Below, piece by piece: positions 32,019 through 38,632 of a stretch of DNA of 64,000 bases. Made by a program: the position numbers and the translations under genes. Source of the DNA: an uncultured delta proteobacterium (GTDB lineage: Bacteria; Desulfobacterota; Binatia; Binatales; Binataceae). Position 1 is the stretch's first letter. Each line of letters begins with the position of its first letter. The DNA lies in the NCBI GenBank assembly GCA_963717005.1, contig OY970324.1, positions 658,937-722,936 of the forward strand, in the 5' to 3' direction. The notes under the pieces are model-generated. The model ran no database searches and was not told where the DNA came from. It saw only the letters and a list, made by a program, of their open reading frames with translations.

Positions 32019-34052
32019 TCACTCCTCCAGGTCTGGCGAGAGCGACGCGATCGAGTGCCTCATGCTCTTGAGCTGGTTGATGATACCGACCAGTTTACCG
32101 CGATTGCGCTGCTCGGCAGCCTTCTTGAGCTCGTTCTCGAGCTTGCGAGCCTGCATCTGGACGGTGAGGTAGTTGGGCGGCACGGTCACCTGGGCACCCG
32201 CGATCAAGCGATCGACATCGGCCAGCTCTCCCGTGCACAGCAGGACTTGCACTTTAGTTGGCTGGTTAAGATTGATCAGGGTAACCGAATCGCCTACCAG
32301 CCGCTCGCAGTCGGCGATCGCGTACACCGAGCTCAACGACCGTAGGAAGAAGCCCAACGTATTTAATACTTGCTGAGTTTCGGTCGGGTCGGAGAAGTAA
32401 GTGTTGGCGAGAGTGGCCAGCGCCTGGGCCCCGGTCTCGCCCTTCCTGGGAGCTGTAAATGCCTTGATCGCATCGCCCGTGGGTGAAAAATAAAATGAAA
32501 TAGCGCCTTCGAGGGTATTGAAAGCGCCATTGTGGAAAAACGACTTCTTGCGGGCCGATTCGATCAAAGGTTGAAGATTGAAGGCGCCCTCTTTCAAACC
32601 GGATCCGCTGATACACCCGGTGTTGCCGCCTGAATTTATGCCGTTGTTACAGTCACTGCCCGACGACGATACCGCTGTCGCCCCATTGGCAACTTTATCG
32701 CCCGCATCCTGAGGAAAGATGATCGGCGCCACCATCGCGTTGAGTCCATGCGCGGTTGCCGTCGCGCCGTTGAGGCATGTGGTCGGCGAGCCGTTTGCGT
32801 CAGTGCACCTCAGAAGATCCACCAATTGCTTCGAGGTGAAGTTACGTCCCGGAAAAGGAGCGGAGGGGTCATTGGGGTTGGGTGCATGGACCAGACCGGT
32901 GGCGTCGTTTGCGCCGGCATTGAAGTGGCAAAGATTGCACTCGGTATTGCCGTTGAGAAATATCGCCTTACCCGTTTCAGCCGTGCTGTCCTTGAAGGTG
33001 ATAACGGGTTGCGATGCGTCGACCTGCGTTCCCGCGGCGAAATTGGTCAGTGTATCGGTGCCATCGTCCGCGTCGCTGTTCACGCCCTGCTTCAGAGCGA
33101 ACTCGTATCGGCGGCCGAGGTACTCCTGGAAAGCCGCGATGGCGTCCAGTTCCGCGGACGTTGGACAGCGGAAATCGACGCCGGGTACCCGGTTGAGGCT
33201 CCGCGTCAGGTGAGTCTGGACCGCGGTGAGCGAAAAGGCTCGCAGCGACTTGGTCAGATCCAGGGGGTCGGCGTTCGCCGCGTCGATAGCATCCCGGCAG
33301 TCCTGATTCAGGGAAGTAGTGGTGGCTCCGAAAGCATCGGGGTCGGCGAGCGTGCCGTCTCCTGACCAACCGAGCTCGATATTGCGAGTGCCGTCATCAA
33401 CCCCCGGATTTGCGGTCCCGAACGTTGGAGGATTATCATTAAGAAATACGTTAGTCAGCGGAAAAGGCACCGCGCTGGCCGGAAACGGCGGCGGCAAAGA
33501 CCCGCAAATGACCGCGACCAAATCTGTGCCGTTCTCGATTACCCCAGGCGGCGAGTCGTTAGCGCAGAAATCTGGCAGGAAGTTCGAGGTTGTTAAGCTC
33601 AACCCCGCAATCGTCATCGAAGCGCGAAACGGGCCGACCGGCGTGTTGGTTGATCCTACTTCATCAGGTGTGCCCCCTACACCAGCGTTGATGTTGAACA
33701 GCCCGAGGGTTTGCACCATCGTCGAGTTCTCCAACGTGCCGTTGCCGGCGTTCCCTGGGGCGACGCTGGCCGCGAAGAGCAATTTCTTCTGATGAGCGCT
33801 CAGCGTCGGGATGTCTGCCGGGGTGATATCGAAGTCGCTTTGCGGGAGATGGCAGGTTGAGCAGGTGCGGCCGTTTCCGTTGAAGGTTTGCTTGGTGAAA
33901 ATCTTGAATCCGTGATCGATTAGCTTGGCCGATTTGGCGTCAATCGCCCACGCTCTCGAGCCAATCGTACCCGGAAGCAGCAGTGCCAGAGCATGGATCG
34001 CGAGGATCGACGACCACGTGCTTCGTCTTGCAACTGTTCGCTGTGCTTTCAT
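32019..34052 (-). CDS. Secreted diheme c-type cytochrome, cytochrome c peroxidase/MauG superfamily-like
   Basis: Signal peptide ending RAWA; two CxxCH motifs (GRTCSTCH, GKAIF...ECNLCH); FNLQPL...FFHNGAFNTLEGAISFY resembles the CCP C-terminal motif; 10 additional Cys. Confidence 0.75.
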   Translation of the reverse strand: MKAQRTVARRSTWSSILAIHALALLLPGTIGSRAWAIDAKSAKLIDHGFKIFTKQTFNGNGRTCSTCHLPQSDFDITPADIPTLSAHQKKLLFAASVAPGNAGNGTLENSTMVQTLGLFNINAGVGGTPDEVGSTNTPVGPFRASMTIAGLSLTTSNFLPDFCANDSPPGVIENGTDLVAVICGSLPPPFPASAVPFPLTNVFLNDNPPTFGTANPGVDDGTRNIELGWSGDGTLADPDAFGATTTSLNQDCRDAIDAANADPLDLTKSLRAFSLTAVQTHLTRSLNRVPGVDFRCPTSAELDAIAAFQEYLGRRYEFALKQGVNSDADDGTDTLTNFAAGTQVDASQPVITFKDSTAETGKAIFLNGNTECNLCHFNAGANDATGLVHAPNPNDPSAPFPGRNFTSKQLVDLLRCTDANGSPTTCLNGATATAHGLNAMVAPIIFPQDAGDKVANGATAVSSSGSDCNNGINSGGNTGCISGSGLKEGAFNLQPLIESARKKSFFHNGAFNTLEGAISFYFSPTGDAIKAFTAPRKGETGAQALATLANTYFSDPTETQQVLNTLGFFLRSLSSVYAIADCERLVGDSVTLINLNQPTKVQVLLCTGELADVDRLIAGAQVTVPPNYLTVQMQARKLENELKKAAEQRNRGKLVGIINQLKSMRHSIASLSPDLEE

Positions 34053-34219: not shown

Positions 34220-34249
34220 GAAAGCCCCTAGTGTTACCTAGGGGCTTTC
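34220..34249 (-). terminator. Intrinsic terminator after the collagen-like genes
   Basis: Perfect 12-bp stem GAAAGCCCCTAG/CTAGGGGCTTTC with 6-nt loop, followed by TTTTGT on the minus strand. Confidence 0.8.
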
Positions 34250-34280: not shown

Positions 34281-35261
34281 TTACGGAACAATAAGCCCCG
34301 CACCGTGATCGTAAGTCACCGACCATTTCACGTTGGCGTGATTCGCGCCCGGATAGTCGGCGTACGCCCACAGACTCATTTCATCGGGATTCGGCACCGG
34401 CTGGCCACCAACCCCAGGAGGGGGTGTGACAGTCACATTGAAGAATTGCGAGCCAGTCAGGTCGCTGCAGGTCGTGTCGGGCCCGGTAATGAAGCAGCTA
34501 AGACCGCAATTCGACGGAAAGTTATTACCGTTGCACAGGAAGAACCAGAAAGTGCTCGGGATCCCGGTATTCATCTGGGTGCCGGGGTCATTGTCCACGT
34601 TCACGAACAAGCGTCTCGCAGTTCCTATCTCGGACATCGGCACTTCAGGCGCCTGGGACGTGTCTGAACCGTTGCCCGGTCCGAGGATCAGGATGGTGCC
34701 AGGATTTCCGACGCTGTTATTACCCGAGAGATCGACGTTGAAGAGGTTTCCGAGCGTGCCCATCGAGCCGCCCGTGAAGACGGAAATATTCGGCTCCGGG
34801 ATTCCGGGCGTGCCTGAAGGTCCAATCGGCCCAGTCACGCCGACCAACCCGGTTGGGCCGCGGAGTCCATCTTCACCCATTATTCCTGCCGGCCCAGTCG
34901 GGCCTGTCGGTCCGATGGCGCCCTGAGGACCCTGCGGTCCAAAAGCCCCCTGCGCACCCGCAGGTCCCTGGTCGCCTGGGTAGCCTTGGGGCCCCTGTGT
35001 GCCAGGGAGACCGGGATCACCGGCCACGCCTCGCATCCCGGTGTAACCGGCGGGACCGGTCGTCACCCAATCCAGTTCACTGGTGTTGCCGGTGCAGCCG
35101 TCAATCCCGAGATTGATGCCCTTGATTTTACCGGTGTGGTTGTTGATACAGATCTCAATATTCTCGGCGCGGCCGACGCCCGGTAGTGCCGCCACGCAGA
35201 GTATCGTAGCGGCGGTCGCACCGACCAGCCAACGCCACGCGAATTTAGACAAAGCAGGCAT
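34281..35261 (-). CDS. Secreted collagen-like protein (29 Gly-X-Y triplets)
   Basis: RBS GGAGG before ATG 35261; signal peptide ending GRA; Cys-pair N-domain; uninterrupted G-X-Y tract; Cys-containing C-domain with GPGNG. Confidence 0.88.
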
Positions 35262-35348
35262 GTTGACGCCCTCCATTTTCTGTTGCCCTCCACCCGTGAT
35301 GACTTCCGATCGCGATTTCATCTGTCTTGTCCTCCTCGCGTCCCGGAA

Positions 35349-36362
35349 TCAGAAAGCGTCCGCAGGGGCGATCGCATAGTCCAGCGACCAATTGACGTTG
35401 ACGGGATTGGTGGCGATTGTGGCCTCGGATTTGTAGGCCTGAATCGAGAGAGTATCGCCTGGCGCGTAATCCAGGCTCAGGGCGCTTCCGATAAAGGTGG
35501 AAGTCGAGCAAACCGTCGAATCCGAATTCGGGAAAGTGTCATTCGCGACAGCGCAGAACGGATTCGTCATTATGTCGCAGTCCGCCTCGTTACACAGGAT
35601 GAAAGTGTATTGGGCACCGAGAGGACCCGCATCTCCGGGTGTAATCGCAACCGTCATATTGAAAGCTGTGCCGCCCGGAGTTGGCACCTGAACGCTGGTC
35701 TGCGGACCTGCAACCGGGGCAGGAGGAATCGAAGTGATGCCTTCTCCCGAGGCGCCATTTCCCGGTCCCAGGTACAAGGGGGTGGTTGGCACTCCGAGGT
35801 TTCCCGAAAACTGAGTCAGTTGGATAGACGCAGCCCCGCTGATTGTTCCGCCAAGCGTGCCGCCGCTGAGAATCTCAACGTTGTCGCCCGGACCAAATGA
35901 GGGAGTTCCGCTGGGTCCCGTCGGCCCGACTGCGCCCACAGGCCCGGTTGGTCCCGGATATCCCGTATTGCCCGTCGGTCCCGCAATACCGGTAAAGCCT
36001 TGCACTCCGGCCGGACCAGTCAGGCCCTGCGATCCCATTGGGCCCGTCGGACCTACTGGACCAACCAGACCTTGCGAGCCTGTCGGTCCGACCGCGCCGG
36101 GTGCACCAGCGGGACCGGTGTAACCCTGATATCCCTGTGGACCCTGTGGCCCGGGAAGATTCCAGACCAATGAGATGTTGTGGTTTTTGCAAACATGGTT
36201 GACCCCGATAATCTTGCCGCTCCTGGCGATGCAGAGATTGATGGGTCCGGTATCCGGTGTCTGCGCCAGCGCGTTCGATGCCGGCGCGATAGCCGCTATT
36301 AACATCGCAGCCGCCGATGCTCCGACGAGCCAGCGCCACGCGTTCTTGAAAGAATGAGGCAT
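35349..36362 (-). CDS. Secreted collagen-like protein (28 Gly-X-Y triplets)
   Basis: RBS AGGGAGG before ATG 36362; signal peptide ending ALA; same domain plan as its neighbours. Confidence 0.88.
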
Positions 36363-36427
36363 TATCGTCCCCTCCCTGACTGTTACCATTCGCGTACTCG
36401 GCATTCCCATTCCCCTATTCCGCCCGC

Positions 36428-37384
36428 TCAAGGGCCAACCACGATTGGGACATCGCCACCGGTCTGATGAACTACGACCATCCACGAAAGCTCGGTCGGC
36501 TCCGCACCATTGCTCGCGGTCGCCTTGAGGGCGATGGTGTCACCGGCGTTGAAGTGCTGGCTATCCACGAGATCCTTGCACTCGGTCAGGTTCGGCTGAT
36601 TGATAAAGCAGGTGACCGGTGACGACGAGCAGTCGCTATTTTTGCACAGTTGGAAGGTATAGCTCTCGCCCGGTCCCGGCACGTTCTTGGTCTGGACCCA
36701 GAGCTGAGTCACAGTCGAAGCGTCGATTGGTACCGCTACGCTCTCAAGCTGCGTATCAGCGCCATTACCCGGACCATAGTAAATCGGGCTATTGCTGCAA
36801 GTGCCGGTCGAGCAGAATGGGTTTGCGCCGGTCGGGCCGGACGGGCCACCCAATACGCTCGTATAGCCAAACAGCAGTTCGACGTTGCTGCCCAAGTCGC
36901 CGCCGCCAAGCGTGTAGAATTGGGTTCCGTTGACGCCGTTAACACCGGCGGCTCCTGTCGGTCCAGTCGGACCAGTCGCTCCAGTCGGTCCAGTAGGGCC
37001 TTGCGGTCCCTGCTGACCCATTTCTCCGGCAGGACCGATTGGCCCAGTGGCTCCCACATCTCCTACTGGCCCGATCGCACCGGCCGGTCCTACAGGACCT
37101 TGAGGTCCCTTCTCACCCGCAGTGCCGGTAGGTCCTTGCGGTCCTTGCTGACCCTTGGGACCCTGAGGTCCGGTTGGCCCGGTCACGCCGTTGCTATCCC
37201 AGGTGATCAACCGATTCGGCTTGCTGCAGGTGCCACCGAGCGGCAAAACAACCTTCTGGGCGCTCGGCGATATACAGAGCGTGAGTATGTCCGCCTGACC
37301 GGATCCCGGCGCGGCGGCGAGTAACAGCGCCCCCACCGCGACGCCCAGTACCATGCGTCGGGCATGCTTGAGTGATTCGTGCAT
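36428..37384 (-). CDS. Secreted collagen-like protein (30 Gly-X-Y triplets)
   Basis: RBS AGGGAGG; signal peptide ending GQA; Thr/Gln-rich G-X-Y tract; C-domain with GPGNG and FQLC. Confidence 0.88.
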
Positions 37385-37747
37385 TTACCATCCCTCCCTA
37401 GAAACTCGCGCCAGAGATTAGCTGGCCTGCCTCGCCCAAATCGGGAACCCGAAGTATGATCGCGGCCCCCCCCGGGACACTTTGCCGAAACCTTTGTCGC
37501 AGAAAACCACAGGTAGAGTCAACCACCCCTGACAAATGCCTTTTCGCCCTAGCCATCGATAACGGTCGCATCCTTCAGTTCCGTGTAGCTTAGGCATCTG
37601 TTGGGAGCCTGTTTCGTGCCTGTTGATTGTCAGAGGCTCGCACGCTCTAATCGACTCTCCCGCAATGAATATTTCACGCGCTTAAAGCCGCACGCGGAGA
37701 ATTGAAGCTCCGGGGAACGGCCCTTGCCGCTGACCGCTGTCGTGTGT

Positions 37748-37776
37748 TTGCCGAATTCTCCTTGCAGTCGTAGAGT
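37748..37776 (+). promoter_or_regulatory. Sigma70-like promoter TTGCCG-N17-TAGAGT; ATG 37784 lies 7 nt downstream
   Basis: Canonical 17-nt spacer directly before the selenoprotein start. Confidence 0.5.
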
Positions 37777-37783
37777 GAGGCGC

Positions 37784-38632
37784 ATGCCAGTCGCATACAT
37801 TCCTCGCACGCGCGATCTCTACAACGAGTTCACTCCTTATCGATGGGTCGAGAACGATTCCGCGCCGTTCACTCCGCTCACAAAATCCATCGCCGAGTGC
37901 AGAATCGCGATGATCAGCTCCGGCGGCATCATGTATCGCGATCAGCCGCGCTTCCATCGCGAGGACGCGTCGTATCGCCGCATCCCAAAGGATGCGCGCC
38001 GCGACGACCTGAGCGTGTGGCACTTCGGCTATCCGACCCGCGACGCCGAGCGCGACGTCAACTGCGTGTTCCCGCTCGAGCGGATGCGCGAGCTCGAAGC
38101 GGCCGGCGTAATCGGCGCGCTAATCGATCCGGCGTTCAGCTTCATGGGCGGAATTTATTCGGCGCGCAAAGTCCGCGACGAACTCGCTCCACAAATTCTC
38201 GATGAGCTCAAGCGCGCGCATGCCGACGCTTTCTTCCTCGTCCCGGCCTGACCCGTTTGCCATCAGTCCGTTGGACTGATCGCACGCGCGGTCGAGGAAG
38301 CGGGAATCCCCACGCTCGCAATGACTTCCGCCCTCGACATCACGCAGTCGGTGAAGCCGCCGCGCGCGGTGTTCGTAAATTTCCCGCTCGGTCATCAGAC
38401 CGGACCGCCCGATCAACCCGAACTCCAGCGCCGGATCGTCAGCGACGCGATGCGCGCCTTCGAGACCATCACGGCGCCCGCGACCATCGTCGAGCTGCCC
38501 TACGTGTGGGACGCCAACGATCGATCGTGGGAAGAAATCGACTACACGAAAGGATGGATGCCGGCGCGTCCGTCGCGCGAAGCCGCCGACCAACAAGAAG
38601 CCGCGCGCCGGGCAAAATTCCGCCGCCGCTAG
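37784..38632 (+). CDS. PrdB/GrdB-like (proline/glycine reductase selenoprotein B family) selenoprotein with UxxC motif (282 aa, Sec156)
   Basis: IAMISSGG, DVNCVFPLERM.EL...G.IG, FSFMG, then FLVPA-TGA(38249-38251)-PVCHQSVGLIARAVEEAGIPT...PPRAVFVNFPLGH in frame; SECIS-like hairpin after the TGA. Confidence 0.9.
38262..38280 (+). promoter_or_regulatory. Putative bacterial SECIS hairpin (ATCAGTCC-GTT-GGACTGAT)
   Basis: Perfect 8-bp stem with G-leading loop 18 nt after the UGA. Confidence 0.72.

Follow-up and report, generated by a model that had tools for sequence, protein, structure and literature searches.

Three collagen-like genes lie side by side in a 64,000-nucleotide stretch of an uncultured delta proteobacterium of the Binataceae (contig OY970324.1; the whole stretch is called the window below). 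They are co-oriented open reading frames (ORFs), here called A, B, and C, and fill exactly minus-strand positions 34281 to 37384. We consider it highly probable that their products are the three chains of one collagen, an obligate 1:1:1 ABC heterotrimer with a C1q-like head. Strong indirect support for one chain of each kind per helix comes from two features of the gene family: helix length co-varies among the three genes from locus to locus, and the pairing of Lys with Asp is specific to one chain register. The novelty lies in this unusually strong sequence-level evidence for both the composition and the register of a heterotrimer. A first-pass annotation of the window had suggested a three-chain heterotrimer from the matched helix lengths of the diverged paralogs, and had set variable gene number and uncorrelated repeat lengths at homologous loci as a test that could overturn the idea. 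The suggestion came through that test, and it is now supported by conservation of the triad, by length co-variation over an about threefold range, and by charge pairing that fits the order A-C-B alone.

Helix length and gene number across loci

The comparison covered 97 related loci (18 from genomes and 79 from metagenomes; identified below by L numbers), all of them in Binataceae metagenome-assembled genomes (MAGs) or soil metagenomes. All 18 genome loci, and every metagenome locus long enough to be judged, contain three co-oriented genes in the order A-B-C, with the orthologue of gene A first. Helix length varies from 24 to 27 triplets up to 86 and is nevertheless matched across the three chains. 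The short states, given as A/B/C triplets, are 27/24/25, 29/27/28, 30/28/29 (the window), 29/29/28, and 30/30/29; the longer ones are 38/38/37, 46/~46/45 (B frameshifted in a long-read MAG), 54/54/53 (A with a 1-nucleotide indel), 60/60/49+11 (C with a one-residue break), 78/78/77 (pieced together from two contigs), and 86/86/85. Several of the long-helix loci come from error-prone assemblies.

The match becomes tighter when spans are measured between domain anchors, as the number of residues from the Trp of the N-domain to the h-x-G-G motif that opens the C-domain. Of 34 unique triads, 33 show spans that are equal to the residue for A and C, and in a second clade the span is the same in all three chains (93/93/93, 96/96/96, 120/120/120, and 264/264/264). 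In the window it is 96/97/96, so the offsets in 30/28/29 are boundary effects. Two other candidate length exceptions, L001 (30/27/29) and L086/L089 (30/29/28), vanish under the same measure. A further proposal, that two independent one-triplet deletions had occurred in the window clade, was withdrawn; the 27-triplet B chains have a common junction motif, and a single origin is possible.

The long helices grew by an 8-triplet module, giving lengths of 30+8k triplets. The sequence of the module differs from chain to chain, its period and copy number are common to all three, and the modules sit at the same helix level in every chain. The unit corresponds to 24 residues, or about 6.9 nm (for example, triplets 25 to 56 of each chain at L082), and its period leaves traces even in short helices. 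Gene conversion was considered as a source of equal lengths and modules and was ruled out, since the paralogs are too diverged: their collagen parts are 16 to 27% identical at X and Y positions, and the longest shared DNA words are 11 to 14 nt.

At L014 (5653-8344; 27/24/25 triplets) the N-domain is absent from all three chains, the signal peptide leading straight into collagen, and gene C is frameshifted in the head; the sequence would fit either a coordinated domain loss or a decaying locus. At L016 (7720-9192), L018 (7711-9270), and L082, chain C alone has a tail of at least 100 amino acids, rich in Thr, Pro, Ala, and Asp, after the head. Such a C-only tail would mean one tail per trimer and a further asymmetry among the chains. 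Chain A sometimes has a short tail at long-helix loci.

Charge pairing and chain register

The chains of a collagen helix are staggered by one residue, and an acidic residue at position X of triplet n+1 is within reach of a Lys at position Y of triplet n on the preceding chain. Triplet 1 was taken to begin at the first Gly that follows the N-domain Trp, and all registers were scored by counting basic residues at (Y,n) that face acidic residues at (X,n+1) on the next chain, or at (X,n+2) for the contact from the trailing to the leading chain. Summed over 37 unique triads, the register A-C-B gave 34 pairs; B-A-C, which has the A>C contact in common with it, gave 24; and the other four hetero-registers and each homotrimer gave at most 7 (AAA 3, BBB 2, CCC 6). 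Across the family, 33 of 37 Lys residues at Y are paired. The natural pairs are nearly all Lys-Asp, number 1 to 5 per helix of 84 to 258 residues, and close the cycle A>C>B>A, with the n+2 offset that is expected only for the step from the trailing to the leading chain.

The signal is clearest where charges are plentiful. At L067 all five Lys residues are paired (A-K17>C-D18, A-K23>C-D24, C-K18>B-D19, C-K24>B-D25, and B-K14>A-D16), and none of 5,000 triplet shuffles produced five pairs in any register. Triplet shuffles gave P=0.001 for L073, with four of four Lys paired, and P=0.012 for L069, with three of four. Both Lys residues of the window are paired (A-K4>C-D5 and A-K9>C-D10; P=0.03), as are two of four at L094, the most distant locus (P=0.05). 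In the three charge-rich loci L067, L073, and L069, no other of the 27 compositions and registers scores as well as A-C-B, and a chain offset of zero is the sole optimum; for the window and L094 the zero offset ties with others. Counted by site, 10 of 14 distinct Lys positions have Asp or Glu at the predicted partner position, compared with a background of 5.7% (binomial P=3e-10).

Partners also come and go together on different genes. A-K4 and C-D5 are both present in 18 unique triads, both absent in 6, and discordant in only 2, and the joint loss covers at least three separate groups (L004, L020, and L012/L050/L058). A-K9 and C-D10 occur in the window only, and occur together. Read from the genes, the Lys-Asp pairing thus fits one register only, with A leading, C in the middle, and B trailing. 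Homotrimers would leave these charges unpaired, and it is difficult to account for the pairing without placing A, B, and C in one helix.

At C-Y22 a conserved Arg has Phe or His opposite it, at B-X23 in one clade and at B-X22 in the window clade. A cation-pi contact with B is a possible lead here and is not counted as evidence.

The C-terminal head domain

The C-domains are 163 to 183 residues long and 29 to 32% identical to one another, with an invariant GPGNG, an F.LC motif, further Cys residues, and a late Trp. The AlphaFold2 (AF2) model of the A domain is an all-beta sandwich (mean predicted local distance difference test [pLDDT] score, 85.4; predicted TM-score [pTM], 0.82). Its best Foldseek matches in the PDB are gC1q domains (C1QL1, C1QL3, Caprin-2, and Cbln1), TNF-family ligands, and the Bacillus exosporium protein ExsF, and nearly all of the top 50 belong to these three kinds (E values of 1e-4 to 2e-3; probability, 1.0). 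Matches among viral models (TMq of at most 0.68) include collagen-repeat proteins of giant viruses and phages, C1q-domain proteins, and the C-terminal domain of BclB. The domain is therefore predicted to be a C1q/TNF-like jelly roll.

C1q/TNF domains are trimerization modules, and they nucleate collagen folding in C1q, in collagens VIII and X, and in BclA. From this role we infer that the three paralogous heads, as modeled, may associate as a chain-selecting ABC trimer.

Alternative explanations

Several observations weigh against a single ABC heterotrimer. Its stoichiometry and register are deduced from sequence only. The window copy contributes just two informative Lys-Asp pairs, whose P value is about 0.03 when taken alone, and Arg at Y is essentially unpaired with acid across the family (1 of 44). 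Many of the loci are related and their counts are not independent; since relatedness overstates independence, the test by site (14 sites) and the shuffles by locus are given as well. In the window clade, B is 1 to 6 residues longer than its partners by way of a non-collagen linker. At L073, five triplets are missing from chain A toward the C terminus of its helix (129-200 of the A gene; 78 residues versus 93/93), and at L089 gene C is followed by the start of a second C-like gene that is cut off by the end of the contig (5600-5943), a possible extra C in a family that otherwise keeps to three genes; both may be assembly artifacts. Attempts to name the C-domain by sequence failed in Pfam, NCBIfam, and PDB searches, with Pfam C1q unmatched and nothing relevant from a profile search of PDB sequences, and the Foldseek TM-scores against solved C1q domains are modest (0.38 to 0.49, with a predicted structure as the query). 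As a separate observation on L073, the Asp partner of the deleted Lys is also missing from chain C.

The alternative that fares best is that A, B, and C form three separate homotrimers, held to equal length by one structure of fixed thickness, such as a surface nap or a spacer between layers. Such a layer would select for length matching on its own, characterized bacterial collagens are homotrimers (PMC8968730), and AlphaFold 3 (AF3) modeling of Clostridioides difficile BclA1-3 argues against heterotrimers, having returned none. However, the homotrimers satisfy almost none of the Lys-Asp pairs that A-C-B accounts for, among the pairs is the n+2 offset that marks a trailing-to-leading contact between different chains, and Lys and Asp are lost and gained jointly on different genes. 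Residue-exact spans and module insertion at the same helix level are, moreover, tighter than a shared thickness requires. We regard this explanation as improbable.

A slightly poorer prospect is promiscuous assembly, with the chains combining in varying proportions (A2C, AC2, ABC, and others) as those of collagen VIII do. It draws on the window, where C-A-C gives three pairs and AAC and ACC two each, equaling or exceeding the two of A-C-B; these compositions do so because the B chain of the window carries no charges. Where B is charged it contributes both C>B and B>A pairs, and the charge-rich loci single out A-C-B. Mixed assembly is also at odds with the retention of all three genes everywhere in strict order and with the joint loss of all three N-domains at L014.

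That the Gly-X-Y tracts form no functional triple helix, or that the genes are decaying and the regularities reflect shared ancestry and compositional bias, is very unlikely: the frameshifts that would favor decay (L016 B, L018 A, L014 C, and L009 B) occur in MAGs assembled from long reads and leave the total length as expected, whereas the tracts are unbroken and keep their composition over about 100 loci, the ORFs are intact with a conserved Shine-Dalgarno sequence and leader, and the shuffling controls exclude composition as the source of charge pairing.

Proposed assembly and function

The ABC heterotrimer suggests the following course of assembly. Each chain would be exported by the Sec pathway. 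The C1q/TNF-like heads would then associate as an asymmetric trimer, pick one copy of each chain, and nucleate folding, after which the Gly-X-Y tracts would zip from the C to the N terminus into one triple helix of about 26 nm. Axial salt bridges between Lys(Y) and Asp(X) would set the one-residue stagger, with the chains in the order given above, and three small Cys-containing N-domains would cap the far end. The rod lengths, about 26 nm here and up to about 74 nm in relatives, assume 0.286 nm per residue. Conservation of the triad, residue-exact matching of lengths, charge pairing specific to one register, and the C1q-like predicted fold are shown here, all by computation; head-driven chain selection, folding from the C terminus, the roles of disulfides, and the 1:1:1 stoichiometry are what we infer. 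The head has four conserved Cys residues and the N-domain two, as would suit an oxidizing extracytoplasmic location.

Across the family the stalk would have been reset between about 25 and 86 triplets, largely by 8-triplet modules, and a change in length would be needed in all three genes because all three chains share one helix. Taken together, the data make it likely that this is a self-contained bacterial system in which heads choose the chains, a few Lys-Asp bridges lock the A-C-B stagger, and length is reset in lockstep by 8-triplet steps.

As to function, our suggestion, made with low confidence, is a rod, secreted or on the cell surface, which would hold out an asymmetric C1q-like head for binding at a lineage-tuned distance and act as an adhesin or as a surface fiber like that of BclA. 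Such a role would fit the fast evolution of the genes relative to their neighbors, the variable stalk length, and the analogy with BclA fibers and C1q heads. In a bolder and less likely extension, trimers would be linked through their N-terminal Cys domains into bouquets like those of C1q and would act as a bacterial pattern-recognition or adhesion molecule.

Gene organization and protein features

The translations bear out the layout described in the first-pass annotation: each gene encodes a signal peptide, a C..C..W N-domain, an unbroken Gly-X-Y tract, and a homologous C-domain (Table 1), and the strong divergence reported for the paralogs is seen in both the C-domains and the collagen parts. 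The absence of a visible anchor likewise held, with no LPXTG, lipobox, or PEP-CTERM motif in A, B, or C, and no membrane segment in any of them beyond a single N-terminal hydrophobic one. In A this segment spans residues 10 to 29, and the AF2 model places a helix at residues 4 to 23.

Table 1. Features of the collagen triad and its surroundings, in window positions
Feature	Position	Strand	Remarks
Gene A	36428-37384	-	ATG at 37384; 318 amino acids; GGGAGGG upstream of ATG; predicted leading chain
A signal peptide	37292-37384	-	Residues 1-31; putative cleavage after GQA, by the AXA rule only
A N-domain	37190-37291	-	Cys37, Cys53, Trp62; small beta mini-domain
A collagen tract	36920-37189	-	30 Gly-X-Y triplets; Lys at Y4 and Y9; PF01391 E=1.2e-13
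A C-domain	36431-36919	-	163 amino acids; predicted C1q/TNF-like jelly roll; four conserved Cys
Gene B	35349-36362	-	ATG at 36362; 337 amino acids; GGGAGG before ATG; predicted trailing chain
B signal peptide	36264-36362	-	
B N-domain	36153-36263	-	
B collagen tract	35901-36152	-	28 triplets; zero charged residues in window copy
B C-domain	35352-35900	-	
Gene C	34281-35261	-	ATG at 35261; 326 amino acids; predicted middle chain
C signal peptide	35166-35261	-	
C N-domain	35058-35165	-	
C collagen tract	34797-35057	-	29 triplets; Asp at X5 and X10; Arg at Y3 and Y22
C C-domain	34284-34796	-	
Intrinsic-terminator-like hairpin and T run	34220-34249	-	12 pairs, 7 of them G-C, then TTTTGTGTCT; directly after gene C
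Conserved upstream region (probable promoter and leader)	37385-37535	-	TTGACT (37522-37517), TTTTCTGCGA block, G-rich hairpin (about 37462-37480), Shine-Dalgarno sequence
Di-heme protein gene	32019-34052	-	677 amino acids, secreted; two CxxCH heme-binding motifs; directly downstream of triad terminator
GRDB-like frame	37724-38632	+	Split by in-frame TGA at 38249-38251

The N-domain has about 35 residues with two Cys and one Trp in each chain. In the family alignment of A, C37 and W62 are invariant and C53 is conserved in at least 90%. The full-length AF2 model of A gives the N-domain strands at residues 33-39, 44-46, and 58-63 with modest confidence (pLDDT, 60 to 69) and leaves the collagen part unstructured, as expected of a monomer. 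All three collagen tracts match Pfam Collagen PF01391 (E values of about 1e-13 to 1e-14; 51 to 53 bits against a cutoff of 27.2), with Pro at 38 to 53% of X positions and Thr and Gln dominating Y. Pfam and NCBIfam matched nothing outside the collagen part of A, B, or C, and no further Gly-X-Y tract of at least 8 triplets occurs elsewhere in the window.

The last triplets before the head contain conserved Asn-Gly-Thr/Ser sequons (GVNGVNGTQ in A; 36920-36946), and in another clade (L015, L016, L018, and L082) the helix ends with GTNGTNGT sequons in all three chains. Judged by sequence, these Asn residues may be either glycosylation sites or a structural Asn ladder where helix and head meet.

An operon of genes A, B, and C is the best explanation of the layout. 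The single terminator first noted for the three genes is a strong, G+C-rich, terminator-like hairpin that appears to close the unit. The listed ORF of B reaches further 5' to a GTG, and its internal ATG is preferred; Shine-Dalgarno sequences (GGGAGG and GGAGG), conserved 7 to 9 nt upstream, support the chosen starts, including the internal ATGs of the second and third ORFs.

About 150 nt upstream of gene A contain blocks that are better conserved across clades than the coding sequence (alignment of 18 to 37 loci), and this region is probably the promoter and leader. Its conserved elements, found in the same region in L001 to L089, are TTGACT, a TTTTCTGCGATGA block, and a G-rich hairpin (GTCCC-GGG-GGGAC), which at L015, L017, and L089 is spelled differently (ATCCGG-GGGG-CCGGAT). 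A GCCAGAA...TTCTGGC inverted repeat precedes the Shine-Dalgarno sequence. No Rfam family matched the operon or leader, the single-sequence fold was no better than those of shuffles, and RNAalifold gave no supported consensus.

Distribution and genomic context

The collagen triad family is narrow, as judged by sequence searches. A profile of the three C-domains retrieved 224 proteins, all derived from metagenomes or MAGs, and when a single genome was scanned for each species, 18 loci turned up, each in a different genome; these genomes are all Binataceae-type MAGs and were deposited as "uncultured delta proteobacterium," Candidatus Binatus, or Binataceae. Only 63 clusters were returned when 1.84 billion representative proteins were searched exhaustively with HMMER; among the 10 examined, the proteins named for an organism were from Candidatus Binataceae.

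The triad always occupies the same chromosomal site, between housekeeping and metabolic genes that are 85 to 97% identical across loci, while its C-domains are only 34 to 85% identical. Its inheritance is thus vertical, and it is evolving much faster than the genes around it. The flanking genes (Rieske, SDR, luciferase-like, GRDB-like, MAPEG, Tpx, and nitroreductase) have no evident functional tie to the triad.

Two neighbors deserve mention. The di-heme protein has only weak similarity to the di-heme peroxidase, MauG, and MbnH families. It was considered as an obligatory collagen-modifying partner and ruled out, since its gene is present in only 6 of about 37 loci that cover this flank and is therefore a variable insertion. 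On the other side, the frame resembling glycine/sarcosine/betaine reductase selenoprotein B (GRDB; PF07355) reads through its TGA as ...FFLVPA-U-PVCHQS..., with a UxxC motif, and both halves are about 90% conserved in related loci; by sequence it is probably one selenocysteine-containing gene and not two ORFs.

Significance and comparison with known systems

Heterotrimeric collagens (types I, IV, and IX and C1q) are central to animal biology, and how their chains are selected and brought into register is still debated. A 2025 review on the structural determinants of heterotrimers does not mention bacteria. Recombinant bacterial collagens are a favored model and biomaterial, and reviews list their homotrimeric nature as a limitation for the study of heterotrimers. 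If our interpretation is correct, the triad would encode the first natural heterotrimeric collagen to be well supported in bacteria, against the rule that prokaryotic collagens are homotrimers. It would offer built-in selection domains, a register readable from sequence, and about 100 natural variants of 25 to 86 triplets, and chain selection, staggering, and length control would become directly testable in Escherichia coli. It would also be a ready scaffold for recombinant heterotrimeric collagens and for the display of heterotrimer-specific sites. For the uncultured Binataceae, the triad would mark a conspicuous, fast-evolving envelope or secreted protein, and in evolutionary terms it would represent a convergent or very ancient reuse, outside animals, of the plan seen in C1q, in which three genes provide a collagen stalk with an asymmetric head.

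In C1q, the A, B, and C chains are encoded by three clustered genes and enter an ABC heterotrimer one of each, giving an asymmetric head. The Binataceae triad resembles vertebrate complement C1q in having three clustered paralogs, each of which encodes, after a signal peptide, a short N-region with Cys, then a collagen stalk comparable in size and a C-terminal head of the C1q jelly-roll type, and it thus has the makeup of a C1q-type gene set. The head belongs with the C1q/TNF jelly rolls by its predicted structure and not by its sequence. Unlike C1q, the bacterial proteins have no detectable sequence homology to it, their helix has no interruption or kink, their stalk length is highly variable between lineages, there is no evidence here for a hexamer-of-trimers bouquet, and the host is a soil bacterium.

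All three chains are collagen-repeat (PF01391) proteins, and like streptococcal Scl1 and Scl2 and Legionella Lcl they are secreted with an unbroken Gly-X-Y tract, the collagen part being matched by the NCBIfam models of those families. The scores, however, are far too low (45 to 61 bits against family cutoffs of 325 to 500, and 31 to 61 bits against 325 to 400 when Scl1/Scl2 membership is judged), and the triad has neither the LPXTG anchor nor the N-terminal V domain of those homotrimeric proteins, which places it outside the LPXTG-anchored Scl1/Scl2 collagens.

The resemblance to BclA, BclB, and F-BclA of Bacillus and Clostridioides extends to a Gly-X-Y count that varies between strains, Thr-rich triplets, and a C1q/TNF-like trimerizing head. 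Those are single-gene, homotrimeric spore proteins of Firmicutes, attached through an N-terminal exosporium-targeting segment; the triad, in contrast, consists of three obligatorily linked paralogs with a different N-domain in a candidate phylum that does not form spores. Its occurrence in Candidatus Binatota MAGs and charges that homotrimers leave unsatisfied set it apart from the exosporium collagens of the BclA type.

The nearest precedent, and the sole earlier bacterial triad of such a kind found in the literature, is that of the Pasteuria ramosa PCL triplets, which are likewise co-oriented, with one member of each of groups 1 to 3 in fixed order (McElroy et al. 2011; PMC13233619). The likeness shown here is one of organization only. 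Pasteuria is a parasite among the Firmicutes and has dozens of duplicated triplets, which are under host-parasite selection, and in the PCL literature covered here a heterotrimer is raised merely as a possibility, without evidence from length co-variation or register.

Finally, in the ABC heterotrimers designed by Hartgerink and co-workers, axial Lys-Asp contacts from the leading to the middle and from the middle to the trailing chain are the rule that sets composition and register (review PMC7824840), and the same rule applies to the Binataceae triad. The designed peptides are synthetic, 30 residues long, and held by many charge pairs with no folding domain, in contrast to the one to five pairs per natural helix, and chain selection in the bacterial collagen is presumably achieved mainly by its globular heads.

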